Below, piece by piece: positions 43,586-59,144 of a stretch of DNA of 64,000 bases. The position numbers and the translations under genes were made by a program. The notes under the pieces were generated by a model. The model was not told the origin of the DNA. It ran no database searches and worked only from the letters and a program-made list of their open reading frames with translations. Numbering within the stretch: the stretch's first letter is position 1; every line of letters begins with the position of its first letter. The stretch covers positions 320,001-384,000 of the forward strand of contig JABCTZ010000036.1 in assembly GCA_018238155.1 (NCBI GenBank), in the 5' to 3' direction. The DNA is from Candidatus Heimdallarchaeota archaeon. Lineage in GTDB: Archaea; Asgardarchaeota; Heimdallarchaeia; JABLTI01.

Positions 43586-44617
43586 GTTTCAATACTCATA
43601 ATTGAGCTTTATTCTTTGCATCCCGATCTATTGACTCGTGATTTTGTAGCGACACAAGACGTTTCAATACTCATAATTGAGCTTTATTCTTTGCATCTTA
43701 CTAACCAATTGCTTCTTCTAGTTTCAGGTGAAAAACGTTTCAATACTCATAATTGAGCTTTATTCTTTGCATCCAAGCTAAAGCATCACGCAGTCGTCAT
43801 AGGAGCAACTCAGACGTTTCAATACTCATAATTGAGCTTTATTCTTTGCATCAAGTTTGTGATTTCTTATGGCTAAGTTACGCTATCAAGTTGTTTCAAT
43901 ACTCATAATTGAGCTTTATTCTTTGCATCACCAATGGCTTATCTGTGGATGGGAACAGCTTATTTTGTTTCAATACTCATAATTGAGCTTTATTCTTTGC
44001 ATCTTCATTTAGATCTGTTAGAACTTTTATCCATTTATCCTCGTTTCAATACTCATAATTGAGCTTTATTCTTTGCATCATTCCTTAATAAAAAGGTTAA
44101 CATCTCAGCAGTAAGATTGTTTCAATACTCATAATTGAGCTTTATTCTTTGCATCAAGTAATTTGGACGGTAATTTGTCAACTAACATTCTAAAGTTTCA
44201 ATACTCATAATTGAGCTTTATTCTTTGCATCCATAAATATCACCATCCTTAGTATCTTTCCATTCTAGGTTTGTTTCAATACTCATAATTGAGCTTTATT
44301 CTTTGCATCTACAAGTTTAACGACTCTAAAGCGCGCCTGGAGAGTAAGTTTCAATACTCATAATTGAGCTTTATTCTTTGCATCAATGAAAATTTCTCAG
44401 ATGATAAATGTCACTATTTGAGAGTAAGTTTCAATACTCATAATTGAGCTTTATTCTTTGCATCTGACTTGAAACACGCTAACTTGAGAGGCGCTAACTT
44501 GAGGTTTCAATACTCATAATTGAGCTTTATTCTTTGCATCACGATATAGACGCCACTAAAGGCGCAGGAAGTTTTTAATTGTTTCAATACTCATAATTGA
44601 GCTTTATTCTTTGCATC
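43586..44617 (-). CRISPR. CRISPR array: 14 identical 37-bp repeats and 13 spacers of 37-43 bp
   Basis: Plus-strand repeat GTTTCAATACTCATAATTGAGCTTTATTCTTTGCATC starts at 43586, 43661, 43737, 43816, 43893, 43967, 44043, 44119, 44195, 44273, 44348, 44428, 44504, 44581. The reverse complement ends in ATTGAAAC and contains a CTCA-ATTA-TGAG hairpin, so transcription is inferred on the minus strand. Confidence 0.99.
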
Positions 44618-44880: not shown

Positions 44881-45447
44881 CTAAGCTCTCCAACATTGTA
44901 ACCAAAATTCGCAGTCTTGGCATTTTTTTTCATTTGGTGTGGGAGAAGGAATAATCTCTTTAGTTACAATTTGCAACATTATTGTATGCTGCTCCAAAGC
45001 ATCTATTTTATCTCGCAGTGTAATAGGAATCTCAATTCGTTTATCGGCACCATAACGAATTTCAGCTTTATTTACATCCGTTTGAAAGATATTTTCAAGG
45101 ATAATGGCTTGAATAACGAGCTGAATTAAATGGTGTTGAGGTATTGTAGAATAGATCTTACCTGTTTTAAACTCAATTGGGTAGTAATCATTATTAGATT
45201 CTACATAGGCATCAAAAAGAGCTGCTAAACCTAAATCCGGCTCGACAATGAAACGATTATAATAGATCGTTGATTTTTCCAGTTTAGTTTGAGTTTTCTT
45301 TCGTATCTTTGAATCATGATAATCAGCTCCCTTCCTCATTTTGTAAGATATTCTAGGAAAGATCTTCTTAACATATCTAAAATAGATTATTCTTGGGCAA
45401 TAAATGAACTGTCGGAAATCTTCTGCAGTAAATTCAATGTTAGTCAT
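44881..45447 (-). CDS. cas4: CRISPR-associated exonuclease Cas4
   Basis: YCPR, G..YH, FDAY, PIEFKTG, CQDCEFWLQC Fe-S cysteines. Confidence 0.92.
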   Translation of the reverse strand: MTNIEFTAEDFRQFIYCPRIIYFRYVKKIFPRISYKMRKGADYHDSKIRKKTQTKLEKSTIYYNRFIVEPDLGLAALFDAYVESNNDYYPIEFKTGKIYSTIPQHHLIQLVIQAIILENIFQTDVNKAEIRYGADKRIEIPITLRDKIDALEQHTIMLQIVTKEIIPSPTPNEKKCQDCEFWLQCWRA

Positions 45448-45761
45448 AAAATCACAACCTTTTCTTCTTCGAAACCAAACGCAGACTTCTGTTTGGTGAT
45501 CAATAGATCACTCATACCAATGTAGCTTATTTTTTCAAAACAACGAAAACATATTGGTATCACTACTACTTTCCCTAGTCTTTTTGCGAAAAGATCGCTT
45601 ATTTCCATGATGAGCATTTCAACCATATTTCTGGTTTGCTCTCCGGCAAAGACAGAAAATTGTATACGTTGGAAGCCATAGTTTTCACAAAGTTTGGCTG
45701 TTTTCGTTCGGAGAGAATCATTTGGGATGTCATAGCTTACAAGATAAAACAACAAAATCAC
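45444..45761 (-). CDS. cas2: CRISPR-associated Cas2
   Basis: LVSYDI...R...AKLCENYGFQRIQFSVF. Confidence 0.95.
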   Translation of the reverse strand: MILLFYLVSYDIPNDSLRTKTAKLCENYGFQRIQFSVFAGEQTRNMVEMLIMEISDLFAKRLGKVVVIPICFRCFEKISYIGMSDLLITKQKSAFGFEEEKVVIL

Positions 45762-46796
45762 CTACCTTTTCAGACTAAATGGTTGATAATTCTCTATGTC
45801 TCCTCTGAAGAATTTTCCTGCAGATCGAGCTTGATGTATGATATGTTGTTCAAATGACATATTTTTGTCTGTGTGTTGATTTGTTTCCTTTTGAGTAAAA
45901 GTTTTGATTAATTCTGAAAGGAAATGTTTTTTGAAATCATTCTTAAGCTTACAAAATTGACCTTGTATATCGAAATCATCAGGAGATACCTCAGACTTTC
46001 CTACAAGCCTGAGGATCAATCTATCTACAATTGGTTGTCTAAACTCCTCAATTATATCCAAAACAAAGGATGGTTTCCCGCTTCGGTCAGTATGTAAAAA
46101 ACCGGCATAGGGTTCTAAACCGGCGATTAATACTCCAGAAAGCACTTTCATCGTCAAAATTGCATAAGCATAACTGAGCATGCTATTAATAGGATCCTTG
46201 GGTGGGCGACGATTCCTGTTAGTAAAGGTAAATTCAGCGGGGATTAATTCCTTAAAAGCAGTAAAATAAGCATCTGCTGCTGCACCTTCAAAAGCAAAAA
46301 TACTTTCACGGTGAAAAGTAATTTTACGACTCATTTTTAATGATAAGTCTTTTTCCAAATAGCTTTCCAATTCTTTGCTTTTACTCTTTACTATTGAATT
46401 TGCTCGAACACTTAATTGTCTATTCTTCTGAATTCTTCGCAGAAGATTACGCTTATTTGTTATTGCACCCCTTAGAGCACTAAGAATAAACCTTGTTCCA
46501 ACAGATGATTCATATGCTAAAATCTGCGCTCTTCGTGTTGCTACCGTTCCATGAGCAACATAAGAATGTAAAATTCCAACAGGTTTTCCACCTCGGAAAA
46601 ATAATGCTGGAACACCATTTGCTGTTAACAAATCAATTGCACCTGATGTTAGTGTTGCTTTTGATTCGATAATTAACTGTTCAAGCTTCATTATTGGAAT
46701 ATAATTTTTAGCCAAGTCTTTGGAAGGATAAGTAACATAAAGTCTTTCACCTTCTTTGCCAATCTTAGCCCCATGCTCTGCAATAATAAGTATCAT
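45762..46796 (-). CDS. cas1: CRISPR-associated integrase Cas1
   Basis: FEGAAADAYF, RNRRPPKDPINSMLSYAY, GFLH, LDIIEEFRQPIVD. Confidence 0.97.
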   Translation of the reverse strand: MILIIAEHGAKIGKEGERLYVTYPSKDLAKNYIPIMKLEQLIIESKATLTSGAIDLLTANGVPALFFRGGKPVGILHSYVAHGTVATRRAQILAYESSVGTRFILSALRGAITNKRNLLRRIQKNRQLSVRANSIVKSKSKELESYLEKDLSLKMSRKITFHRESIFAFEGAAADAYFTAFKELIPAEFTFTNRNRRPPKDPINSMLSYAYAILTMKVLSGVLIAGLEPYAGFLHTDRSGKPSFVLDIIEEFRQPIVDRLILRLVGKSEVSPDDFDIQGQFCKLKNDFKKHFLSELIKTFTQKETNQHTDKNMSFEQHIIHQARSAGKFFRGDIENYQPFSLKR

Positions 46797-46824
46797 TTCT
46801 TACACCACATCTCCTCTAACTCAG

Positions 46825-47787
46825 TTAATCTGTTGTTAGAACCTCCAAGCCTTTCAAATGAGAAAGGTTGTATGCATAAACAACTTCTTCTGAAGTTTGT
46901 TGCTCTACAGGTTGCACTAGCACAATATTTCCACGAGAATAGACCACTTCACCGGCAAGCGTATTTGGGAATGAAACAGTTTTAATTTTGCGATTAGTTC
47001 CTATTTGCCCCCAAGTATCAAGTAAGTCTATATTGGTAATTTTACAATCAGGATAAAGTTCCAGTAATTGCTCCGCATAATCATAGAGTGAAACTATTTC
47101 AGAGGTTTTTTCATAGTTCGTTAGTAATTGTATCTTATCAGCAAAAGTAAGGAAAGTAGTTAGATGAAGCTGGTCAGCAATCATTGCTTCAGCAGCAAGA
47201 ACATTTTCTAAAGAACTAAATTTTGAGAGCACTAATGCTTCATCTAATCCTTGTTCAATTAAACGATAATATTTACCTTCACTTCTTCTACAATTGCTTA
47301 TCCCAACTTTGATTTTATTACCAAATCGACCAAGATAAAGATAATGATCACTATAGCATCTTGCATGCTTCCAAGCTAGTTGACAAGGATAACTTTCAAG
47401 AGTACACTTGACATCGAAAGGTTTACCTGGACCCTCGAAAATACACCTTTGACATTTATATATCAATGAATCTCTACAGAGATCACATATTGCATCTCGA
47501 GTTGCACGTGGTATAATTTCATCACAATACGAGCATCGCTTCAAACCAAACTCTAAGAAGAGAGTTCCATCTAAAGGTATGGTATAACTAAGTCCATCAC
47601 CTTGATCAACCAAAAGTTGCAAAGATTTAGACCCAACACCAAGCTTCCACAAATATCGTCGAATTATTGGTGAGTCACTTACACATATTTCTTCTCTAGA
47701 AGAAAGAACACGGTTATTTGATATTTTCCCTTTGATAATCACTTTGCTAACACCAAGTGATGTATAACAATGAAAATTAAAGAACAA
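46825..47787 (-). CDS. DUF2797-family protein (Cys-rich, GIY-YIG-like core)
   Basis: CSYC, CDLC, CQRC, then HYLYLGRFGNKIKVGIS...RLIEQG...E, matching the DUF2797 pattern HxVYLA...KVG...RWIDQGA; start uncertain. Confidence 0.78.
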   Translation of the reverse strand: MFFNFHCYTSLGVSKVIIKGKISNNRVLSSREEICVSDSPIIRRYLWKLGVGSKSLQLLVDQGDGLSYTIPLDGTLFLEFGLKRCSYCDEIIPRATRDAICDLCRDSLIYKCQRCIFEGPGKPFDVKCTLESYPCQLAWKHARCYSDHYLYLGRFGNKIKVGISNCRRSEGKYYRLIEQGLDEALVLSKFSSLENVLAAEAMIADQLHLTTFLTFADKIQLLTNYEKTSEIVSLYDYAEQLLELYPDCKITNIDLLDTWGQIGTNRKIKTVSFPNTLAGEVVYSRGNIVLVQPVEQQTSEEVVYAYNLSHLKGLEVLTTD

Positions 47788-48035: not shown

Positions 48036-49595
48036 ATGTTGACAGGATATACACAAATACGATATAGCTGGTATATTCCTTTACCACAAATATTTACACA
48101 TGATACTTTAATAAATCAAGATTTTAGATGGATTATGAAGAATAACTTATCAAGTGAAGAAATTAAGACAAATCAAGCAATTATTAGAAATTTTGGAAAA
48201 TTACGTTTTGATAAGACAATGACTTTTCCACTTGTATCTCAAGATAATCAAGTTAGAACCTTTAAAGAAATTCCGTTTTCGCCCCTATGTTTCACTTCAA
48301 CAGAACAGAAAAAAACCGTTTTTGAATTTTGTAATTCACATTCGGAAAGTACTCAAACTGATATGAAAATTGAATCAGTCAAATTCTCAATTCAATTATA
48401 TCCAATTGGTTTTGGAGTAATTATTGCATATGTTAACTTTAGAGAAATAATTGAACCAGAAATAATTAATCATTTTGTTGATAAACTTAAATGTGGTAGA
48501 AAAAAGAAATCAATGACAAAATATGCTCATTACCTTAAAAAGCAGTTATTGAAAAGCCTTTTTCAAGAAAAAGAAATAGCCAATATTAGAACTGTTTGTC
48601 AAGGACCAAAGATTAGAGTAAACTTTATTGATCAATGTTTTTCCGAACAGAAATTTAATGACTATGCCAAAAAAATACTTGGCACTAAAAACTCTGAAAC
48701 AAAAATCCTTTTTAGATTTAATAAGAAAACAGATGATTTAACTGCTTTTTATAAAAAGGGGCTCGTGGTCTTTTCTAGCATGGACCTTTCTAGAGGAAGA
48801 AGAAGTTATTTTAGAAAAAACCTTGATTTTATAATGGATGTTTTTTATGGTGCAAATTTTCTTCTTCCGTTGATACCTTCAATAATTACTAAAGCTGATA
48901 GCATAAATAGATATGGCAAAATGAAAAAACTAATCTCTACTATCTTTTTAACGCTTAATCCACAAATATTAGAATCCAAAAATGAGCTTGATTCACTTCT
49001 TCCTACTGCAGGTTTACGATTGTGGTTTAGACTTTTTAATAAAATATTTCATTATACAGAAAATTACTCCCTGCATCTTGAAAAGATAATTGCACAAATA
49101 AATGAAATGCGTGTGGATAAATGGTATGAGCTTATTACTTCATCATTAAAGGAGAACATACCCATTGTTTCAGATCTCTTATTAAAAGATTTCAAAAAAC
49201 AAAACTATTCGATTAGAGAAATAATTACTCCAAAAATACAATTAGATGAAAGGAACAAAGAAATAATTGACTTTATGCTAGAAAGAATAACAGCTGATTT
49301 TACGAGTCGTTTTGGCTTTAATAGAAACACTCAGTTATCAAAGGATAAATTAGGATTTTGTACACTGAATGTCATTGAAAGAACTTTAGGCATTACAGGA
49401 AGAAAACATATGGAATTCAAAAATAGATTAGATCTACTTAGTAGAGTAGGTTTATTAGAAGCTGAAGCTTACAGAGGTCCTGGTTCAAGAAAAGATAGTG
49501 TGCAATATAGAGCATCACCTAGCCATCCTTATGTAGACACACATTTGAGAGTAAAATTAGCAAAAGAATCAATATCTGAACTCAAACTAAGATAG
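48036..49595 (+). CDS. Cas-locus protein with C-terminal winged HTH (putative regulator)
   Basis: C-terminal LDERNKEIIDFM...TLNVIERTLGITGRKHMEFKNRLDLLSRVGLLEAEAYRG...VQYRA; GGAAGAGG upstream of the ATG. Confidence 0.65.
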   Translation: MLTGYTQIRYSWYIPLPQIFTHDTLINQDFRWIMKNNLSSEEIKTNQAIIRNFGKLRFDKTMTFPLVSQDNQVRTFKEIPFSPLCFTSTEQKKTVFEFCNSHSESTQTDMKIESVKFSIQLYPIGFGVIIAYVNFREIIEPEIINHFVDKLKCGRKKKSMTKYAHYLKKQLLKSLFQEKEIANIRTVCQGPKIRVNFIDQCFSEQKFNDYAKKILGTKNSETKILFRFNKKTDDLTAFYKKGLVVFSSMDLSRGRRSYFRKNLDFIMDVFYGANFLLPLIPSIITKADSINRYGKMKKLISTIFLTLNPQILESKNELDSLLPTAGLRLWFRLFNKIFHYTENYSLHLEKIIAQINEMRVDKWYELITSSLKENIPIVSDLLLKDFKKQNYSIREIITPKIQLDERNKEIIDFMLERITADFTSRFGFNRNTQLSKDKLGFCTLNVIERTLGITGRKHMEFKNRLDLLSRVGLLEAEAYRGPGSRKDSVQYRASPSHPYVDTHLRVKLAKESISELKLR

Positions 49596-49913: not shown

Positions 49914-49976
49914 CATAATGTCACATTAACTTTGTTTATGATATCTACTCTGAAAAACGATGGAGAGCAACTATTT

Positions 49977-51626
49977 ATGATTCTTAAAACTATAATGGAA
50001 ATCGGTAAGTCAATCAAGGAAGATGTTACAGATACTTTAGAAGAATTACAACGCCACTCCCCTAATTTAGGATCTGATATTATTCATTACATAAGAGAAG
50101 AGTATGGTTATTCAAAGAAGTGCAAAAATTATATTGTTGTAAAAATAGCAATTAACCCCTTCATTTCTAGGCTAAATGAATTCCTAGATAAATGTAGCAG
50201 AAACACAAATCTAACAGAATTAATCTCAGATGATTTGATAAAAATCAAATTGAATAAAAATAAACGACAAGAGATATTTGAGAGATTATACTCAAAAGTT
50301 GATCCAAATCTCATTATCGACTTGCAGCAAAAGGCAATTAAAGTTGAATTAAGAGATTTTGACTATAATGAATTTGATGATATAAAACTGTTGTTAGGAA
50401 ATCAGCATGGAACAACAATCTTTTATTCACCAGTCATGTATCAATCAGTTTCAAAAAGTTTAGTAACCGAGTTACCTATGTGGAAAATCAAACTCAGTAC
50501 AGAGGATAAAGTAAATTCTAGCTTTTTCGATAAACTTCCAACAATCACTGAGTATAATACAATAACTAAAATATCAAGTGAATGCATAAGGAAGGTGTTT
50601 ATCTCTGATATTTTTCTATCTGTAATAAATGATTATCTAAAGGATATAGGGCTTAAAAGTTCGAAGTATTACATAGTCTTTCTACTTGGAAAAGGTAATC
50701 TCCAAGAAGTTAAAGATTATCCTTATGAAATTGAATCATTTGTTGATTATTACAATTCCAAAATTTCAGGTACTGATGAAGGTCCGCGAGGTTTGTGTGA
50801 ACTATGCTTAGAAAAGAAGCCTGTTATACCTGGTCCTAAATCTAAGATTGGATTCTATACTGATGATCCAAAGGGAAATGTTCCTATCCACCTTAACAAT
50901 ACTTACACAATATGCAAAGAATGTAATTCTTATCTTATTGCAGGACGTAATTTCATAAAAAGTAACTTACGATTTAAGCTAGCAAATCGTGGTACTAAAA
51001 GGAAACCCAAAAATCCATTGTTTGCTTATTTTATTCCATACACAGATGATAATGATAATTTGTCAGAAATTTTGAATTTCTTTAAAATACTGGAAAAGAA
51101 GGATAAAGAGGGATTAGAAGGATTAGTTCGAAAAGAAATCATTACAAATGAATTTCTGTATGTAATGGAATCTCGAATGAATGAGGATGATCATCGAATA
51201 ATACAAGATAGTTTAGATTTTCTTATGATTCCATTCAAGTTACATTTCTCTTTACTAATAATCATCTTTTATCATCCGGAAGGACAAGCTAGTTCCTTCC
51301 ATAGCGTGAAGAGGATAATATATTTGAATTCAAATGATATTGACAGAATAAATAATGCTTATAAAAAATTGAAAGATAGAAATAGAACATTTTCTCTTAA
51401 ATCCCTTTTCTACCTATTTGGAGAGTATAAAATAGAGAAGTATATCTTATCGTTTCTGGAACTACGCAAGATGAATAAGCGTATACTATATAAAGATGCA
51501 TACATGATGCTGAAAAGGGGTTTCTTGAGAGATGCTTTAAATCCCGATAAAACATCAACTATAAGACCTACAATGTTTACTTTTACATCATTTTTATACT
51601 TGCTTAAGGAGTTGAAACTATTATGA
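49977..51626 (+). CDS. cas8b: Type I-B large subunit Cas8b (TM1802/Csh1-like), lacking the C-terminal Cas11-like domain
   Basis: Likely start MILKTIMEIGK after GGAGAG; GLCELC...FYTDDPKG...ICKEC...GRNFI zinc-finger pattern; ends FLYLLKELKLL. Confidence 0.85.
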   Translation: MILKTIMEIGKSIKEDVTDTLEELQRHSPNLGSDIIHYIREEYGYSKKCKNYIVVKIAINPFISRLNEFLDKCSRNTNLTELISDDLIKIKLNKNKRQEIFERLYSKVDPNLIIDLQQKAIKVELRDFDYNEFDDIKLLLGNQHGTTIFYSPVMYQSVSKSLVTELPMWKIKLSTEDKVNSSFFDKLPTITEYNTITKISSECIRKVFISDIFLSVINDYLKDIGLKSSKYYIVFLLGKGNLQEVKDYPYEIESFVDYYNSKISGTDEGPRGLCELCLEKKPVIPGPKSKIGFYTDDPKGNVPIHLNNTYTICKECNSYLIAGRNFIKSNLRFKLANRGTKRKPKNPLFAYFIPYTDDNDNLSEILNFFKILEKKDKEGLEGLVRKEIITNEFLYVMESRMNEDDHRIIQDSLDFLMIPFKLHFSLLIIIFYHPEGQASSFHSVKRIIYLNSNDIDRINNAYKKLKDRNRTFSLKSLFYLFGEYKIEKYILSFLELRKMNKRILYKDAYMMLKRGFLRDALNPDKTSTIRPTMFTFTSFLYLLKELKLL

Positions 51627-52921
51627 AAAAGGAGTCGAAACTACAACTACTAGGATCATTAGCAAGTAAATTGCAGAGCTTGGAGGATATAATACGTTCT
51701 AAGGTTATTACAAAGAATCTTTATAGTTTGCTCAAGATGGTTGAAATGGTAGAACGAGATCCCATAAAGATCGAAACAGTAACCAATTTCTTGGAAAAGA
51801 GGTTAAACAATCATTTTCCAAATAGAGCCATCAAAGTTCTTGAAAACAAATTAGAAAGGGAAATTTTAGATGATCTTGAAAAGCAAAAATTAAAAAAGCA
51901 AATCATTAGTGTAAAACGTTCTTACAAGCTTATAACTAAAATCAAAAATGATGATTTACTAACATTTAATTATACGCCTTTTTTTGATTTCATCATCGGT
52001 TATGATAATCTTTCAGAAAACAAGAAATTTCTGTTAAATGGTGATGGTGAGTCTTGGATAGAGAGATGGCATAGTTATCCCTATCTAAAAGAAAATCCTA
52101 ATAATTTCGTAGTTTTTTGTTTAGGTAGATACTATTCTCTTATGAGTATGAAGCAAATCGATAAGCTAACTGAAACTATTCTCTTAAGGAAAAGCACTAG
52201 TTGGTATAAAAACCTAAACTTTAGCAAACTGCTGAAAATCTTTGCTGAAATCACTAAAGCAGGAGCTCTCATTTCTCTGAATGAGAGTAAAGAGAAGGAA
52301 AAAGAGGAAAACAGTAATGAGAGTTCTAAAGAACACAATCTAATCCCTTTTAGGAGATTTAGACAATTTATTGAGTATTATTTACTTACTGAATATTTTG
52401 AAAATAACAATCAAGGATTTGATCAAAACATAAATACATTTCTATTTGGTGCAGGATTTTTTCTACAGAAAAAACCAGAAAAAGTCGATTTGAAAATTTC
52501 AACCATTTTAGAAATGGTTAAGTGGGATAAACCCAATCAAATAGCTGGATTCCTACTTGGCAAGTTGTTCTCTATATACTCCTATTCTGAGTTTGAGGAT
52601 TTAAATACTCGTTCCTACAAGAAGTTAGCTAAAAAAATTCAACTAGCTGAAATAGGCAATCACCCAGAAATAATGTCTTACATTTTTATGATTGCTTTCA
52701 GAATACTTGCGAAAAAAGATGCAAAGATGGAAAAGGAAACCAAAGGGACGAATAAGAACCATTGGTTATATACAAATGTAAAATACCTAAGTCATATCGA
52801 ATATTACATGAAACTCGTAATAAAAAATGACCTTCTCGAAAATATGAATGATAAATACGAAGATGCATTAACGTTTATGACAGGTTATCAATACTATAAA
52901 AAGAGTGATGAAAATGACTGA
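51623..52921 (+). CDS. Small-subunit protein with three tandem Cas11/Cas8b-CTD-like units
   Basis: ATGA overlap with cas8b; three LG...FxxG(Y/F) motif pairs. Confidence 0.65.
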   Translation: MKKESKLQLLGSLASKLQSLEDIIRSKVITKNLYSLLKMVEMVERDPIKIETVTNFLEKRLNNHFPNRAIKVLENKLEREILDDLEKQKLKKQIISVKRSYKLITKIKNDDLLTFNYTPFFDFIIGYDNLSENKKFLLNGDGESWIERWHSYPYLKENPNNFVVFCLGRYYSLMSMKQIDKLTETILLRKSTSWYKNLNFSKLLKIFAEITKAGALISLNESKEKEKEENSNESSKEHNLIPFRRFRQFIEYYLLTEYFENNNQGFDQNINTFLFGAGFFLQKKPEKVDLKISTILEMVKWDKPNQIAGFLLGKLFSIYSYSEFEDLNTRSYKKLAKKIQLAEIGNHPEIMSYIFMIAFRILAKKDAKMEKETKGTNKNHWLYTNVKYLSHIEYYMKLVIKNDLLENMNDKYEDALTFMTGYQYYKKSDEND

Positions 52922-53861
52922 AAAAGACAATGAAAAAATAATTGAAAAAAGAAAGGAATTAATCTTTCTATATTCTGTTAAGGATGCAAATCCAAATGGC
53001 GACCCAGATGACGAGAACCGTCCTAGGACTGATCTTAATGGATATAACATCGTTTCTGATGTACGGTTAAAACGAACAATTCGAGATTATCTCATTGATA
53101 ACGGTGAATCAGTAATAATAAGACGAAAATACACAAATGAAAATAAAGTCAAGAATATTGAAGGTCTTATTACTGATTTTCTTCAGAAAGAAATTACACG
53201 TGAAAAGATTCTAGATAAAATACCAAAGGAATTTATTGATGTGAGATTATTTGGCTTAATGGCAGCAGTAGAAAATGCCAGTTGTGCTATTACAGGACCT
53301 GTCCAATTTGCCATCGGAAAGTCTTTGAATATTCCCGATATATCAACTCATTCAATAACTTCGGTAATGGCTGCAGGTACTGGTAAAGGTGGTGGAGCTA
53401 TGGGTTCATTCCATGTAGTTGATTACTCTCTGATTGCATTCGAAGGAGTTGTATGTCCAAATTTAGCAAAGATATCAAAGTTAACTCATAGTGATGTCTG
53501 TAAGCTCTTTAAAGCGATCTGGATGGGAACAAAGACAATTAATACAAGAAGCAAATTTAATCATATACCTCAATTGCTTATTTCTGTTAATTCAAATAAT
53601 AGTGAATTCCTTATTGGGGATTTAGCTTATCGATTAAAAATCGATGGAGAAAAACCGAACTTTAGAATTAAGCTTGATGATTTCATCAGTCGCATAAGTA
53701 AATTCGCTGAAGATGGAAAATCACAAATCGAATCAATAAGTTATTGCCAAGATCCTGATCTAATATTAAGTTTTGATGGAAAAGAAGATACTTTCGAAAA
53801 TATTATAGCTAAAATAAAAATTCCTGTCGAAAAAATGACTTTTAACTGTGGTGCTAAGTAA
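52905..53861 (+). CDS. cas7: Type I-B Cas7 (Csh2)
   Basis: NPNGDPDDENRPR, SDVRLKRTIRDY, IDVRLFG, ITGPVQF, TRSK. Confidence 0.95.
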   Translation: MMKMTEKDNEKIIEKRKELIFLYSVKDANPNGDPDDENRPRTDLNGYNIVSDVRLKRTIRDYLIDNGESVIIRRKYTNENKVKNIEGLITDFLQKEITREKILDKIPKEFIDVRLFGLMAAVENASCAITGPVQFAIGKSLNIPDISTHSITSVMAAGTGKGGGAMGSFHVVDYSLIAFEGVVCPNLAKISKLTHSDVCKLFKAIWMGTKTINTRSKFNHIPQLLISVNSNNSEFLIGDLAYRLKIDGEKPNFRIKLDDFISRISKFAEDGKSQIESISYCQDPDLILSFDGKEDTFENIIAKIKIPVEKMTFNCGAK

Positions 53862-54640
53862 TTACTACAAAAGTCATTTGTTTTGATATTTGTGCTCCAT
53901 TTGCTACCTTTCGAACACCAGATACGACAAGGGGATATTTAACATTCCCTTTTCCTCCCCGAACAGCTATAGTTGGTTTCCTTGGAGCCATCATGGGTAC
54001 AAAGAAAAGAAATGCTATCTATTCTAGTAAACACTATTTGTCTAAAACAAGAATTGCTTTGCAAGTAGTAAAGAAACCAAGGATGTTAGCTTATAAGACT
54101 AACTATTTTCGTACAAAAAAAATCATGAATATATCAAAAGGTGCTAAAATATACATTCCAATGGATGTTGAAGACAGAGGCGTACGATCTCCTGTAAATA
54201 TTACCCTTTTACAAGATGTTCACTACAGGTTATTCATAGATATGCCTAAAGAAAAGTATGAAGAACTCAAACGTCGCTTGATAAATCATGAAACCGTTTT
54301 CCCAGTATATCTTGGTCATGCAAATATGAGAGCCTATTTCAATTATATTGGTGAAATCGAAATTAAAGAGAATAACGATAACGAAGTTGAATTATTAAGC
54401 TTGTCTAGAGCTGAGCAAATTAAAAACCTTCAACAAGGTGAATTTACAATTATAATGAGTGTACCATTCGATTATGATTACATAGAGAAAAATGACCGAA
54501 TAGAATTATCTCAATTAGCCAATGTTGTTTATCATATCGAGCCTATAAAAGTAAAATTAGCAATTGCTCCTCAAGAATCTTATAAGATTGTAAAGTCACC
54601 AATTGAAGAACAGCTAAACAAATCATTGGTTTTTATTTGA
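53861..54640 (+). CDS. cas5: Type I-B Cas5
   Basis: Frame extends upstream of the ORF-track ATG through KVICFDICAPFATFRTPDTTRGYLTFPFPPRTAIVGFLGAIMG; VYLG motif; probable ATT start at 53861. Confidence 0.9.
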   Translation: MTTKVICFDICAPFATFRTPDTTRGYLTFPFPPRTAIVGFLGAIMGTKKRNAIYSSKHYLSKTRIALQVVKKPRMLAYKTNYFRTKKIMNISKGAKIYIPMDVEDRGVRSPVNITLLQDVHYRLFIDMPKEKYEELKRRLINHETVFPVYLGHANMRAYFNYIGEIEIKENNDNEVELLSLSRAEQIKNLQQGEFTIIMSVPFDYDYIEKNDRIELSQLANVVYHIEPIKVKLAIAPQESYKIVKSPIEEQLNKSLVFI

Positions 54641-54646
54641 ACAGAA

Positions 54647-57232
54647 ATGGGATTGCTAATGTTTGAAGTTGATACGAATAATGTCGAAAGTTTAAAAGAA
54701 ATTATCTCAATGTTGCTTGAGAACACAAAGATTAAATTAGACCTAGCAGCACCATGTCAAACACTAGTTGAACATACAACTAACATGCTGAAAGCATTCA
54801 AAAGTAATAGTAAGCACTTGATACCAAATTCACATATAATAGATGATGAGTTATGGGTTAAATTAATGCAAATAACAATTATTTTTCATGATATTGGCAA
54901 ACTAAACCTTTTTTTTCAACTCTTTATAATTTCAAAAAGAAAGGATTATGATGAAATAAAGGGAGAGTTTAAAACTATAATCCAAGCTAAAGATAGTTAC
55001 GAGCATCTTTTAGATGTGCGCTTCAATAAAAAATACAGAAGACATACGATAGAATCTGCAATCTTAGCTTACTACTTTCTAACCGAGATTTGCAATAAAT
55101 TATTCAAAGATAAAAACATCATTAGAGTTTTTATGAATGCAATTCTGACACATCATTCAGGGCATATGAAATTACCAGAAAAAATGTCTGATTTAAGATT
55201 TTATTTAACTCGTTTAAGAAGCGGAAATCAGAAAGAACTATGGTCCCTTTTCTACACATTCTTGAAAAAGTCATCTTACCTAATGGATATAGCTAATATA
55301 ATTACCGATATAGAATTAAAGAATCTATTTGAGGAATTCCATGAACGTATTGAGAATGACAGCTCCTTAGAGAGCTATTTTCTTAGGAATGGAATTAAAG
55401 AAATAATAAGAGATATGTTCTTTGATGGAACATGCATCTCTCAAAGCAATAATAGTTCGTTCATACATCTAGTACAATATACTTCATCAGTACTATACGA
55501 TCTTGATGAATGGGATGCAATTACAAATAGGAATACTAACTTGGATTCTATGGAAATTTCTTTCGATATCACTAGAAAAGAAACTAATCAACGTTTAATT
55601 GATGATTACATAAAAGAAAATACAAATGATTCTCCTTTGAATCCAATAAGAGAATCTTTTTTGAAAAACACTCGAGCTCAATTCAGCACAATCAAGATTG
55701 AAGAGAAGAGAATTTTTCGGATGATTGCTCCAACAGGAGCTGGTAAAACACTTAATCTTCTATCCGCGGCATTTAGTTTAAAGGAACAAGTTCATTCAAA
55801 TTACGGTTTTTATCCAAAGATAATCTACGCATTACCATTTATTTCTATTTGTGATCAGATTGAAATGATTCTATCTGAATTGCTAGAAACAACTTCTCAA
55901 ACATCAGAGCTCACAGTTCATCACTATCTCAGTAATTTTCAAAAAGATAGAAGTAATGATATGGAAGACGAATACGATTTCTTATCTCCATATGAAATTC
56001 GGCTTTGGAGGTCAGATTTTATTGTCACAACAACTATTAAGCTTTTCTACACCATTTTGCACTTTTACAAAAACAAAGTTAAAAGATTTCATCGTTTGTG
56101 TAATTCAATAATTATTATTGATGAGTATCATTCATTGCCAATAAAGTACCAGAATTTAGTTAAGAAAGTTATAGAGAATCTTACAAGAAACTTTAATGTT
56201 TACTTCATTATAGCAACAGCAACAGCTCCAGCAATATTTGAAAATACCGAATGCAAGGATTTAGTTGACAACAAACTCTTCATGGAATTGAATAGATATT
56301 GGATAAATTACATCAAAGAACCAAAAACACCGAGTGAGTTTTTCGATTATGTTTCTAATCAGATAAAGATGCATCAAAATGAAAATATAATGATTGTTGT
56401 TAACACACGGAATCTCGCTCGAAACCTATTTCTTCATTTGCAGGGATTAAGTAGCGATGAAACGATTGATAGCGATAACTTATTGCATCTATCCGGTAAT
56501 ATGCTACCGAATCACAGAAAAAGAACTATCAGCGAAGAAATTTTACCTAGATTAAAGAATAGAAAAAATACCATATTAGTTACCACGCAATTAATTGAAG
56601 CAGGTATCGATATTGATTTTGATTACATTATAAGAGAATTATCACCATTTAGCTCGATTGTTCAAACAGCAGGTAGATGTAATCGTCATAATAAGAAAAA
56701 TGAAGATGAAATTCCTGAAATAAGTTTGGTCAAAGTAAAAGATGTACCAAATCCTTATGATCCAATAGATCTTGGGGTTACAATAGAGACACTAGATAAT
56801 CTAAAAGGATTATGTAGTAGCACAAAACTAACTGAAAATTTCATTAGAAAGAACTATCAAGTTTATACTAATGCATTAAACAAAAGAAGAGCAAAGTCTG
56901 ATTTGCTTGTTGAATATAAAGATTGTGAATATGAAGAATTATCTGATAGATTCAAGTTAATCAATGATAGCAATCGTTATCCTCTTGTTATTATCCCCAA
57001 AGAGCAAGGGGCAGATGAAGTAGTTTCAGCTATTCAAAAAGTCAAAGATAAACGTTACATATCGAAAGTAATCTGGGTTAATTCTATATCAATTAGTAAA
57101 AGTCAATTAGTAGATAGATTTAGGAAAAACTTAGAGATGATTGAAGATAAAGACATTGTACTATATATCTTGGATTTACGTAAAAATGAGGATTTCTACC
57201 GAAATGATATCGGATTATATATTGAAACATGA
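54647..57232 (+). CDS. cas3: Cas3 HD nuclease-helicase
   Basis: LVEH, FHDIGK, RH, THH; APTGAGKT, DEYH, TQLIEAGIDID, QTAGRCNR. Confidence 0.96.
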   Translation: MGLLMFEVDTNNVESLKEIISMLLENTKIKLDLAAPCQTLVEHTTNMLKAFKSNSKHLIPNSHIIDDELWVKLMQITIIFHDIGKLNLFFQLFIISKRKDYDEIKGEFKTIIQAKDSYEHLLDVRFNKKYRRHTIESAILAYYFLTEICNKLFKDKNIIRVFMNAILTHHSGHMKLPEKMSDLRFYLTRLRSGNQKELWSLFYTFLKKSSYLMDIANIITDIELKNLFEEFHERIENDSSLESYFLRNGIKEIIRDMFFDGTCISQSNNSSFIHLVQYTSSVLYDLDEWDAITNRNTNLDSMEISFDITRKETNQRLIDDYIKENTNDSPLNPIRESFLKNTRAQFSTIKIEEKRIFRMIAPTGAGKTLNLLSAAFSLKEQVHSNYGFYPKIIYALPFISICDQIEMILSELLETTSQTSELTVHHYLSNFQKDRSNDMEDEYDFLSPYEIRLWRSDFIVTTTIKLFYTILHFYKNKVKRFHRLCNSIIIIDEYHSLPIKYQNLVKKVIENLTRNFNVYFIIATATAPAIFENTECKDLVDNKLFMELNRYWINYIKEPKTPSEFFDYVSNQIKMHQNENIMIVVNTRNLARNLFLHLQGLSSDETIDSDNLLHLSGNMLPNHRKRTISEEILPRLKNRKNTILVTTQLIEAGIDIDFDYIIRELSPFSSIVQTAGRCNRHNKKNEDEIPEISLVKVKDVPNPYDPIDLGVTIETLDNLKGLCSSTKLTENFIRKNYQVYTNALNKRRAKSDLLVEYKDCEYEELSDRFKLINDSNRYPLVIIPKEQGADEVVSAIQKVKDKRYISKVIWVNSISISKSQLVDRFRKNLEMIEDKDIVLYILDLRKNEDFYRNDIGLYIET

Positions 57233-58340
57233 GTTCCCAATAATTGCAGAGAAAATTGATGGGAATTGGTGTTTTTGGTCAATAGAAAACATAACAACCA
57301 AAATTTGTGAAATTGTCGATGAGTTTCCCCATTTAAATGGTTTAGATGAGTCATTAATGAAAGATCTCACTGAGCAATTTAGACTTTTTAACTATATAAT
57401 AAAACCGGATAGAGTAACTAGAGAATATATTCTGGATTGTTGCGACTTGGATTTTTTAAAAAATGAACAAGTAAAAAACGAAGAAGGAATTATAATACCC
57501 TTTCAAGATTTCAAAGATCAACTAAAAGATTATGAAATCAGTAAGTATACAAACCCAGTATATTTAGAGTGTGATTATTTTTGTATAGAAATTATTCCAA
57601 ACTCAGAATCAATTATTTGCAAATATCTAATATTCACAAAATCTAGACAATTATGTAATAATGAATTTAATTGTGATAAGGTTCAATGTATGAATCTCTC
57701 ACTCATATTGGGAATACAATATATCCAAGTGGAGTTTATGTATCAACTTTTTAAAGTTTTTTTTAATCTAAACTTTGAGTTATTTTATAGAATAACTGGT
57801 TATTTTCTAACAGAAAATAAAGAATATCAATCAATATCTTCTGAGGATGACTATGAAGTATTAAAAAATTCAATTGAAAACTTGCCCGATGTTATTTGGG
57901 ATAAAAGCAAGTTTCGGTATGGTTTCCTAGCAGGATACTATTGGCGAGATCAAATAAAGCTACTAAAGCATATATTAGAAATCTTATTATCGATATTTGA
58001 AGAAAAAGAAAAAGAATCGAAACCCACTCAATTTATAATTGAAGCAATAACTGAATTTACTGATAAGATCAACAGTTTTAATGATTTAGAAGAGCTCCAA
58101 AATAAAAGGAACAATCACGCACACATTATATTCGAAATTAACAGTATGTCAGAGTTAAAAGAGACATTGCCTAATAATAACACAAAAGAGATATTTATTG
58201 AGTTTTGTAAAAAACGGGAGTTAAAAGTACAATTACTAGAACTTATTAAGACAATATCAAACAAGCTTTTTAGGAATGACAAACAAGGATTACTTATTAA
58301 ACTTATACAAAAATGTTTACAAAAAAAAGGGACAGTATAA
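57186..58340 (+). CDS. Hypothetical protein with HEPN-like RxxxxH motif
   Basis: LEELQNKRNNHAH with R..H at 58107-58124; start overlaps the cas3 3' end (exact start uncertain); stop lies 3 nt before the cas6 ATG. Confidence 0.6.
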   Translation: MRISTEMISDYILKHEFPIIAEKIDGNWCFWSIENITTKICEIVDEFPHLNGLDESLMKDLTEQFRLFNYIIKPDRVTREYILDCCDLDFLKNEQVKNEEGIIIPFQDFKDQLKDYEISKYTNPVYLECDYFCIEIIPNSESIICKYLIFTKSRQLCNNEFNCDKVQCMNLSLILGIQYIQVEFMYQLFKVFFNLNFELFYRITGYFLTENKEYQSISSEDDYEVLKNSIENLPDVIWDKSKFRYGFLAGYYWRDQIKLLKHILEILLSIFEEKEKESKPTQFIIEAITEFTDKINSFNDLEELQNKRNNHAHIIFEINSMSELKETLPNNNTKEIFIEFCKKRELKVQLLELIKTISNKLFRNDKQGLLIKLIQKCLQKKGTV

Positions 58341-58343
58341 ACC

Positions 58344-59144
58344 ATGTACAATTTTATATTCATGTTGGAAACAAAATCGAATTGTTTACTACCATCTTTT
58401 ACAGGGCAAATAATTCGAGGAGCTTTACTTAGCACGATAAATGAATTTGATGCAACATTTGCAGAAAAACTCCACAAAGGGAATGATATTAGACCCTATG
58501 CTGTTTCACCTCTCATGGGTCATGAGGGAAGATTAAATCGAACAAGAAGAAATGAAATCATTGTTAGCAAAGATAGAACCTATAAGTTTCGCATGGGTAT
58601 TCTTTCAAGTGATTTAGCTGAACAAATGATTAAGATTTCTTTGCAAAATGATAAAATGCGATTGCAACTTGCTGATGCTAAGTTCACTGTTTCGAGTATC
58701 GAAATTAAGAAAAAAACTATAAAAGAACTACTTGACTGTGATGACCAACAATCAAAATTTATTGAACTTTCTTTCCTTACACCCTCATGTTTCAATATAG
58801 CTGGTAAGGATTTTCCCATGAGATTTCCTGATCCTAGATTTCTTTTTATGAACCTAGCTACTTTGTGGAACACTTTCAATGAAGAACAAGTTTTTATAGA
58901 TAGGTCTGAATTTTTTACTTGGCTTGAAAGCAATATTTCAATTAACAGATATAAATTAAGCACTCATAGGGTCTATACAGCTAAGAATACTCCCAAAATT
59001 GGTTTTAAGGGGTTTATTCGATACAGACTTTCAGATGACAATAAATATCAATCATGGATTCATGCACTCGCACAGTATGCAGAATTTAGTAATGTAGGAT
59101 CCAATAGAACTGCAGGGTTAGGGTGTGTTAAGTATATTCGATAA
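58344..59144 (+). CDS. cas6: crRNA-processing endoribonuclease Cas6
   Basis: LH...RPYAVS, FLTP, GFKG, C-terminal glycine loop VGSNRTAGLG. Confidence 0.93.
   Translation: MYNFIFMLETKSNCLLPSFTGQIIRGALLSTINEFDATFAEKLHKGNDIRPYAVSPLMGHEGRLNRTRRNEIIVSKDRTYKFRMGILSSDLAEQMIKISLQNDKMRLQLADAKFTVSSIEIKKKTIKELLDCDDQQSKFIELSFLTPSCFNIAGKDFPMRFPDPRFLFMNLATLWNTFNEEQVFIDRSEFFTWLESNISINRYKLSTHRVYTAKNTPKIGFKGFIRYRLSDDNKYQSWIHALAQYAEFSNVGSNRTAGLGCVKYIR

Follow-up and report, generated by a model that had tools for sequence, protein, structure and literature searches.

HEPN ribonucleases and CRISPR-Cas immunity

Collateral RNA damage is known as an output of two kinds of CRISPR-Cas immunity, namely, type III, where Csm6/Csx1 nucleases are activated by cyclic oligoadenylate (cOA), and type VI, where Cas13 is responsible; type I systems, for their part, are thought to depend on the shredding of DNA by Cas3. 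Here we analyse gene X, an open reading frame (ORF) lying between cas3 and cas6 in a 64,000-nucleotide (nt) stretch of the genome of Candidatus Heimdallarchaeota archaeon (assembly GCA_018238155.1, contig JABCTZ010000036.1, positions 320,001 to 384,000 of the forward strand), referred to in what follows as the window. We report that X is held in a fixed position next to cas3 in a small family of Asgard-archaeal type I operons, that it carries an invariant motif of the kind found in HEPN ribonucleases (RNases), and that it may tentatively be read as a Cas3-coupled RNase.

The reviews and surveys searched place the HEPN enzymes of CRISPR systems only among the ancillary proteins of type III and in type VI. 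The Csm6/Csx1-type RNases are dimeric and cleave RNA collaterally (PMC8730458). CARF-HEPN proteins were recorded near type I as well as type III loci in the 2013 survey of HEPN domains, always with a CARF domain, and the same survey describes the HEPN motif as Rx4-6H with a polar residue (N, D or H) directly after the Arg, located where one helix ends and the loop to the next begins (PMC3710099). For single-HEPN toxins, such as AbiJ and RnlA, the N-terminal domains have been proposed to sense infection and to restrain the RNase (PMC3710099). Type I variants with an extra nuclease have also been described, I-E2 and I-F4 with an HNH nuclease and I-E3 with a PD-(D/E)xK nuclease fused to Cas11; in the part of the 2025 CRISPR-Cas classification considered here, the type I gains are HNH or PD-(D/E)xK DNases, and the addition of a HEPN protein is not described (PMC12669027).

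A conserved gene between cas3 and cas6

Translation of the window showed that the frame at 57186-58340 is free of stop codons over 384 residues, which bears out the ORF of about 385 amino acids (aa) proposed by an earlier reading of this DNA made from its letters only (hereafter, the sequence-only reading). The preceding gene, cas3, runs to 57232 and thus into X; on the other side, X stops 3 nt short of cas6, as that reading had stated, with its TAA at 58338-58340 and the cas6 ATG at 58344. The features of X are the following, with residue numbers counted from ATG 57186 here and throughout.

57186-58340, + strand: gene X, with 384 aa if counted from ATG 57186 and, more probably, 378 aa counted from ATG 57204
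57204-57232, + strand: dual-coding cas3/X overlap, with counterparts in all four X loci
57204-57662, + strand: N-terminal domain of X (residues ~7-159), for which a mixed alpha/beta structure is predicted; opens with the invariant S-D-Y...F-P
57663-58337, + strand: C-terminal all-helical domain of X, residues 160-384, candidate HEPN domain
57921-57953, + strand: G-F-L-x-G..W..Q block, residues 246-256, second most conserved, ~55 residues before RNxxAH
58107-58124, + strand: R-N-N-H-A-H (R308...H313), sole Rx4-6H motif in X, candidate HEPN catalytic motif

When 1.84 billion cluster representatives were searched exhaustively with phmmer, only three relatives of X came out, at 23-35% identity, namely, P0003 (402 aa, 34% identity), P0005 (378 aa, 23% identity) and the 251-aa record P0004. 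Word-indexed homolog searches recovered the window's own protein and P0005, and no others. The X family, as used here, has four members, three of them full-length, P0004 being truncated. That P0004 might be a natural short form was considered and rejected, given that an in-frame TAG replaces a Tyr and that the end of its contig folds back: at L005:2600-2798 the TAG falls on the Tyr of the G-F-L-A-G-Y block, and what follows is a reverse-complement copy of the preceding sequence. The 251-aa protein is a truncated record, and the contig end is a fold-back assembly artefact.

All three relatives lie directly 3' of cas3 on metagenomic contigs, and the four X loci are all of type I with cas3 upstream; every homolog found sits in a cas operon directly after cas3, and the refuting case named with the sequence-only reading, homologs that are never cas-linked, did not arise. 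The overlap between cas3 and X measures 26-32 nt in all four loci. The next gene after X is cas6 in L003 and L004 and a RAMP-family ORF in L002, the distance from X to cas6 being 3-14 nt in the window, L003 and L004. Pairwise identities among the X proteins (26-37%) follow the same rank order as those of the adjacent Cas3 proteins (42-60%), and are comparable to that of Cas6 (32%). Because the X identities rank as the Cas3 identities do, X appears to be an old resident of the operon that diverged together with it, and not a recent insertion. The fixed cas3-X-cas6 position, the conserved overlap and the co-divergence with the operon suggest that X acts together with Cas3 or Cascade.

The distribution of X is narrow. 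It was absent from 60 related genomes searched and from 400 of the phylum, the weak matches among the latter being aconitase-like and endonuclease III-like genes; a search of IMG/VR and a search of metagenome contigs with the X pattern likewise gave no match. Nor did X occur at 80 metagenomic loci whose Cas3 is 22-28% identical, and it is missing in two Asgard I-B loci whose Cas3 is 30-32% identical, where cas6 or a regulator gene follows cas3 instead. Since these more distant Asgard Cas3 loci do without it, we take X to be an accessory confined to a narrow I-B subclade, and no core component.

The longest open frame of X begins at TTG 57141. The real start is, however, probably ATG 57204 (residue M7), because the homologs, as aligned, open with a conserved M-x-S-D-Y and because the public gene call for X (P0002) is 378 aa long. 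With this start, 29 nt are common to cas3 and X. The M-I-S-D-Y of X runs one base out of register with the C-terminal D-I-G-L-Y-I-E-T of Cas3, and the bases of the invariant S-D-Y also encode the conserved C-terminal G-L(-Y) of Cas3. As the G-L motif is kept also in the Cas3 of L006, a locus without X, the invariance of S-D-Y may partly be imposed by Cas3 coding. A start 26-32 nt within the end of cas3 suggests that translation of X is coupled to that of Cas3. A GAGG-like stretch, a possible ribosome-binding site inside cas3, occurs ~10 nt 5' of the conserved X Met in three of the four loci.

The contig of P0005 also deserves a description. Its cas3-X-cas6 genes are succeeded, at L003:5870-7629, first by an ORF of 474 aa that resembles a methyltransferase and next by a restriction enzyme of MjaI type together with an N6/N4 methylase. 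This setting resembles a defence island, and no CRISPR array was detected across its 13-kb stretch.

Evidence for and against a HEPN domain

The three full-length members share 46 invariant positions, and the tightest blocks are the N-terminal S-D-Y...F-P, the G-F-L-x-G..W..Q block (246-256), in and near which F243, G246, F247, L248, G250, W253 and Q256 are invariant, and R308-N-x-x-A-H-I314. E231, N-terminal to the G-F-L-x-G block, is invariant as well. The R308-containing block is the most tightly conserved of all, and its R308...H313 motif lies in the stretch LEELQNKRNNHAH, X residues 301-313 (window 58086-58124). The RNxxxH motif pointed out by the sequence-only reading is thus present and conserved in every full-length homolog, as RNNHAH, RNDFAH and RNKLAH in one alignment column. 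Each full-length X-family protein, with lengths of 378-402 aa, has exactly one Rx4-6H motif, and RNxxAH is invariant at 23-35% identity in a protein with as little as 1% Ala and 1.3% His, which exceeds what chance would give. The same cannot be said of the Cys-rich region noted on that occasion: its stretches, ECDYFC (X residues 128-133) and LCNNEFNCDKVQC (X residues 156-168), do exist in the window protein, but no cysteine is conserved in any homolog, and we rejected a Zn-binding or Cys-rich domain on the basis of this alignment.

The motif of X follows the HEPN pattern, being Rx4H with a polar Asn after the Arg, and Asgard RiboL-PSP HEPN proteins carry the identical R-N-x-x-A-H form. When X was compared by hhalign with ten of these Asgard sequences, the motifs came out in register (P 0.006, probability 6%, 17 columns). 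Language-model neighbours point in the same direction, all of them with scores of 0.77-0.87, below the trust level of 0.9 of the tool. For residues 240-384 of X (P0001) these were Csm6_HEPN, DUF4145, Cas02710, MtlR, RiboL-PSP-HEPN, Cas13a and RnlA DBD, and for the equivalent part of P0005, Csm6_HEPN, Cas02710, HEPN_Apea, HEPN_AbiU2 and RiboL-PSP; the ten best family matches of the P0005 search (10/10) came from one clan. The nearest named clusters are therefore nearly all HEPN families, for two members that are only ~25% identical. We conclude that the C-terminal domain of X is probably, if by no means certainly, of HEPN type.

Structures were predicted with AlphaFold2. The model of full-length X had a predicted local distance difference test score (pLDDT) of 57, which is low confidence. 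Its N-terminal domain, with pLDDT mostly at 24-71, is predicted as a hairpin followed by four helices, and not as a beta-alpha-beta arrangement, and the C-terminal domain, modelled as nine helices, reached a pLDDT of 66 and a predicted template modelling score (pTM) of 0.68, again of low confidence. In both models the RNxxAH site occurs at the junction of a confidently predicted helix with a loop of low confidence, after which comes a long helix. Searches by Foldseek against the PDB, VIA-align wide and the Atlas shape search returned generic helical bundles only, placing neither domain. The HEPN entries 2hsb, 3o10 and 4nqf appeared for the full-length model in VIA-align with Z of 5.3-5.5, at ranks 36-49 among many unrelated rows; they were absent among the matches listed for the C-terminal domain model.

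Several of our results weigh against reading X as a HEPN protein that works with Cas3. No HEPN-family hidden Markov model (HMM) from Pfam, NCBIfam or PADLOC was significant for X, even at E<=10, and X, its homologs and their halves matched no family from Pfam, NCBIfam, PADLOC or PHROGs, permissive thresholds included. Searches of PDB sequences with X, as a single sequence and as a profile, gave no match, and home-made HMMs of RiboL-PSP and TIGR02710 scored ~0-3 bits by hmmsearch. As these models do not let the helices be numbered, no residue of X could be assigned to the other HEPN hallmark, an acidic Ex3[KR] in helix 2. Both structural models are of low confidence, and in no fold search did HEPN rise above generic helical bundles. 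The hhalign probability quoted above is low and limited to the motif, and the language-model scores, lying below the trust level, may reflect the motif alone; the HEPN assignment draws on this one conserved motif together with weak language-model evidence. Conservation statistics are thin in a family of four with one truncated member, and gene order is the sole link of X to Cas3 or Cascade. A few weak single matches, to DUF2738 (E 0.0017, P0005 only), phrog_6696 and phrog_14287, were dismissed as not common to the members.

CARF domains and cOA signalling

Neither cas10 nor CARF or SAVED domains were found among the genes scanned at 42-64 kb of the window, in agreement with what had been noticed from the letters, and a Cas10c is encoded elsewhere in the genome. 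Neither X nor its homologs are matched by a CARF, Csm6, Csx1 or TIGR02710 model, and the hhalign probability was 1.3% when X was compared with 14 TIGR02710 proteins of Asgard archaea. The motif of these 14 proteins is Rx6H (RNxS-I-L-A-H), versus Rx4H in X. Judging from these comparisons, X is no recognisable CARF-HEPN protein.

The Cas10c just mentioned is encoded on contig C26 (L035:3677-10865), in an effector operon of type III-C that comprises Cmr1, Cmr6, Cas10c, Cmr4, Cmr5 and Cmr3. It is 1041 aa long (PADLOC E 4.5e-184), is the sole Cas10 detected in the genome, and carries an HD motif. No motif of GGDD type turned up in a simple pattern search of this Cas10c, an absence that is usual for III-C. 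Because of this result, the Cas10c evidence argues against cOA signalling. UvrD-like helicase genes flank the III-C operon, and neither cas6 nor an array occurs in the 16 kb examined. On another contig of the same genome, C43:32206-32661 (L059) shows a sub-threshold match to TIGR02710, a CARF-HEPN family, that covers the N-terminal part only (E 1.9e-6, 27.6 bits).

The host type I-B locus

Going by their matches to known families, the surroundings of X constitute a complete type I-B CRISPR-Cas system, with Cas8b, Cas7 (Csh2), Cas5b, Cas3 with its HD domain, Cas6, an adaptation module and an array all present, as follows.

43586-44617, + strand: CRISPR array, 14 identical 37-nt repeats; 14 exact copies by pattern search, none expected by chance; also found by Tandem Repeats Finder (TRF)
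44881-47787, - strand: adaptation module, divergent; made up of the next four genes
44881-45447, - strand: cas4; Pfam Cas_Cas4
45444-45761, - strand: cas2; Pfam CRISPR_Cas2
45762-46796, - strand: cas1; Pfam Cas_Cas1, E 1.2e-74
46825-47787, - strand: DUF2797 gene; Pfam DUF2797, E 3e-11
48036-49595, + strand: 519-aa ORF, separating the adaptation module from the interference module, which diverge; without a match in Pfam, NCBIfam or PADLOC
49932-51626, + strand: cas8b; PADLOC Cas8b, E 1.5e-13
51623-52921, + strand: 432-aa ORF; no family match
52905-53861, + strand: cas7/Csh2; TIGR02590 Csh2, E 1.5e-59, above its cut-off
53993-54640, + strand: cas5b; TIGR02592 Cas5h, E 2.2e-15
54647-57232, + strand: cas3, HD nuclease and SF2 helicase, 861 aa; TIGR01587 cas3_core, E 3.3e-39; TIGR01596 cas3_HD, E 1e-14; Pfam Cas3-like_C_2
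58344-59144, + strand: cas6, 266 aa; TIGR01877 cas6, E 4.8e-21; Pfam CRISPR_Cas6, E 1.7e-13

The HD motif of Cas3 (H81-D82) is invariant in an alignment of three Cas3 sequences. Because this motif is retained, X supplements the DNA nuclease of the system and does not stand in for one that was lost. The array at 43586-44617 has no degenerate terminal repeat, even allowing three mismatches; this, together with the perfect identity of its 14 repeats, suggests that it was recently active or recently homogenised.

Two further genes of the locus are of note. The DUF2797 gene lies directly 5' of cas1-cas2-cas4 on the same strand, which is an unusual lead gene for an adaptation module. The 432-aa ORF overlaps the stop of cas8b and precedes cas7, the position expected for a Cas11-like small subunit, and the equivalent position in related Asgard loci is taken by a 461-aa ORF (L006:1707-3092) and by a 163-aa ORF (L007:2182-2673).

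Proposed function and rival explanations

Our preferred but tentative explanation, possible and short of probable, is that X encodes a HEPN RNase without a CARF domain which is coupled to Cas3 and supplements type I-B interference with collateral cleavage of RNA. X would then be an accessory cas gene peculiar to one lineage, a narrow type I-B subclade of Asgard archaea, and would be translated from a message shared with cas3 and cas6, in a manner coupled to the translation of Cas3. Its product would have two parts, an N-terminal alpha/beta domain and a C-terminal helical RNase of HEPN type with a single R-N-x-x-A-H, and with its single motif it would be expected to dimerise into the usual two-motif composite active site, from which HEPN enzymes cleave RNA independently of metal. 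The N-terminal domain might restrain the RNase or dock X onto Cas3/Cascade, until engaged or blocked interference releases it. Once released, X would cut RNA non-specifically, providing dormancy or abortive infection as a back-up to DNA shredding, and no cOA signal would take part in its activation. Of all this, our results show the gene order, the overlap with cas3, the co-divergence, the conserved motif and the helical architecture; the HEPN fold, the RNase activity, the dimer and the trigger are inferred. Whether a DNA-targeting type I system possesses its own collateral HEPN RNase that is triggered by contact with Cas3/Cascade, for instance when an R-loop forms, when Cas3 stalls or when an anti-CRISPR blocks it, and not by a cyclic-oligonucleotide messenger, we regard as doubtful.

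X could instead be a non-catalytic subunit of the I-B system, structural or regulatory, for instance one that assists in the recruitment, loading or inhibition of Cas3, with RNxxAH binding nucleic acid or protein. The lack of any significant HEPN model or fold match speaks for this view, the cas3 overlap of all four loci suits a stoichiometric partner, and with the 432-aa ORF that follows cas8b the operon already has one extra gene for which there is no explanation. However, an invariant R-N-x-x-A-H of rare residues, at such low overall identity, has the look of a catalytic site; the language-model neighbours are almost exclusively HEPN in two divergent members; and since related Asgard I-B loci exist without X, it can be no core structural part. 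We therefore consider such a subunit unlikely, without dismissing it. A role as a HEPN RNase in RNA processing, be it trimming or maturation of CRISPR RNA (crRNA) with Cas6 or the control of cas/CRISPR transcripts, would do away with the suicide effector and would fit both the known activity of HEPN enzymes, which are RNases, and the close spacing of X and cas6 in the window, L003 and L004; moreover, with neither cas6 nor an array in the 16 kb examined around the III-C operon, the supply of crRNA may be shared. Against this, Cas6 matches its models normally and over its full length, related I-B loci do without X, the large N-terminal domain is more sensor- or adaptor-like, and no type I system is known in which a HEPN enzyme matures crRNA, all of which makes a processing role quite unlikely.

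The sequence-only reading, whose interpretation our results support in part, had offered as one option that the operon captured an independent defence gene, and this option is disfavoured. The trigger it proposed, the state of Cascade/Cas3 or an anti-anti-CRISPR role, is conjectural. With such a capture, X would be an unrelated toxin or defence gene, of the abortive-infection (Abi) or toxin-antitoxin (TA) kind, merely co-expressed or acting as an addiction module, with no mechanistic link to Cascade/Cas3. HEPN toxins are indeed common in defence islands (PMC3710099), and more distant I-B loci lack X, but X co-diverges with Cas3, it was found solely at cas3-X-cas6, with nothing in the 400 phylum genomes or IMG/VR and only four clusters in the 1.84-billion library, and its neighbours are cas3 and cas6, with no antitoxin-like or MNT gene adjacent; we judge the capture of such a gene improbable. 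The chance that X is a highly diverged CARF-HEPN protein of the Csm6/Csx1/TIGR02710 kind, answering to the III-C system elsewhere in the genome, seems to us very slight. A protein of ~380 aa with an alpha/beta N-terminus, a helical linker and a C-terminal Rx4H does resemble the TIGR02710/Csm6-type enzymes, Csm6_HEPN and Cas02710 are its top language-model matches, and the genome encodes Cas10c. Nevertheless, the hhalign probability against the 14 Asgard TIGR02710 proteins is only ~1%, their motif is Rx6H and that of X is Rx4H, no CARF model matches, and X is embedded in a type I operon and not in a type III one; with no GGDD-type motif found in Cas10c by the simple pattern search, no cOA is to be expected either.

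If X encodes such a contact-triggered HEPN RNase, type I immunity would gain an abortive-infection arm comparable to those of types III and VI. A stand-alone HEPN RNase co-evolving with cas3, and probably translated along with it, would link the adaptive targeting of DNA to dormancy or suicide in a different way, with a new logic of HEPN activation that involves neither a CARF domain nor a second messenger. The family comes from Asgard archaea, where defence systems have hardly been tested, and at ~380 aa X is small enough for direct biochemistry.

Comparison with known systems

X resembles Csm6/Csx1 of type III in being CRISPR-linked and two-part, with a C-terminal helical domain that bears Rx4-6H, and for two members of the X family the language-model neighbour ranked first is the Csm6_HEPN cluster. 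It differs from them in lacking a detectable CARF domain or HMM match, in its location between cas3 and cas6 and not beside cas10, and in having no evident source of cOA. The HEPN toxins of Abi and TA systems (AbiJ, RnlA/LsoA, RiboL-PSP-HEPN, HEPN_Apea) share with X a single C-terminal HEPN, here a candidate one, and the RNxxAH form, and the RnlA DBD, RiboL-PSP, Apea and AbiU2 clusters are among the language-model neighbours of X. Nonetheless, only the motif aligns with them, as the hhalign comparison showed, and X is never free-standing or adjacent to an antitoxin, but tied to cas3. From HEPN-MNT toxin-antitoxin pairs it is likewise set apart, in that it neighbours cas3 and cas6 in every locus and has no adjacent MNT antitoxin gene.

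The likeness to Cas13 and Csx28 of type VI concerns the output, namely, RNA damage by HEPN as a CRISPR response without cOA, which for X is a proposal; the Cas13a cluster is also among its weak language-model neighbours. Cas13, in contrast, has ~1000 aa or more, two HEPN motifs and its own crRNA, whereas X has 384 aa and one motif. Finally, the I-E2, I-F4 and I-E3 variants are, like the loci of X, rare branches of type I whose interference operon has gained a further nuclease module, as far as the part of the 2025 classification considered here describes them; the modules in that account are DNases fused to Cas5, Cas8 or Cas11, often replacing Cas3 (PMC12669027). X, on the other hand, is a separate gene for a probable RNase, alongside an intact HD-helicase Cas3. 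Set against the literature considered here, X would be a CRISPR-linked HEPN effector with a new architecture and in a new host system.

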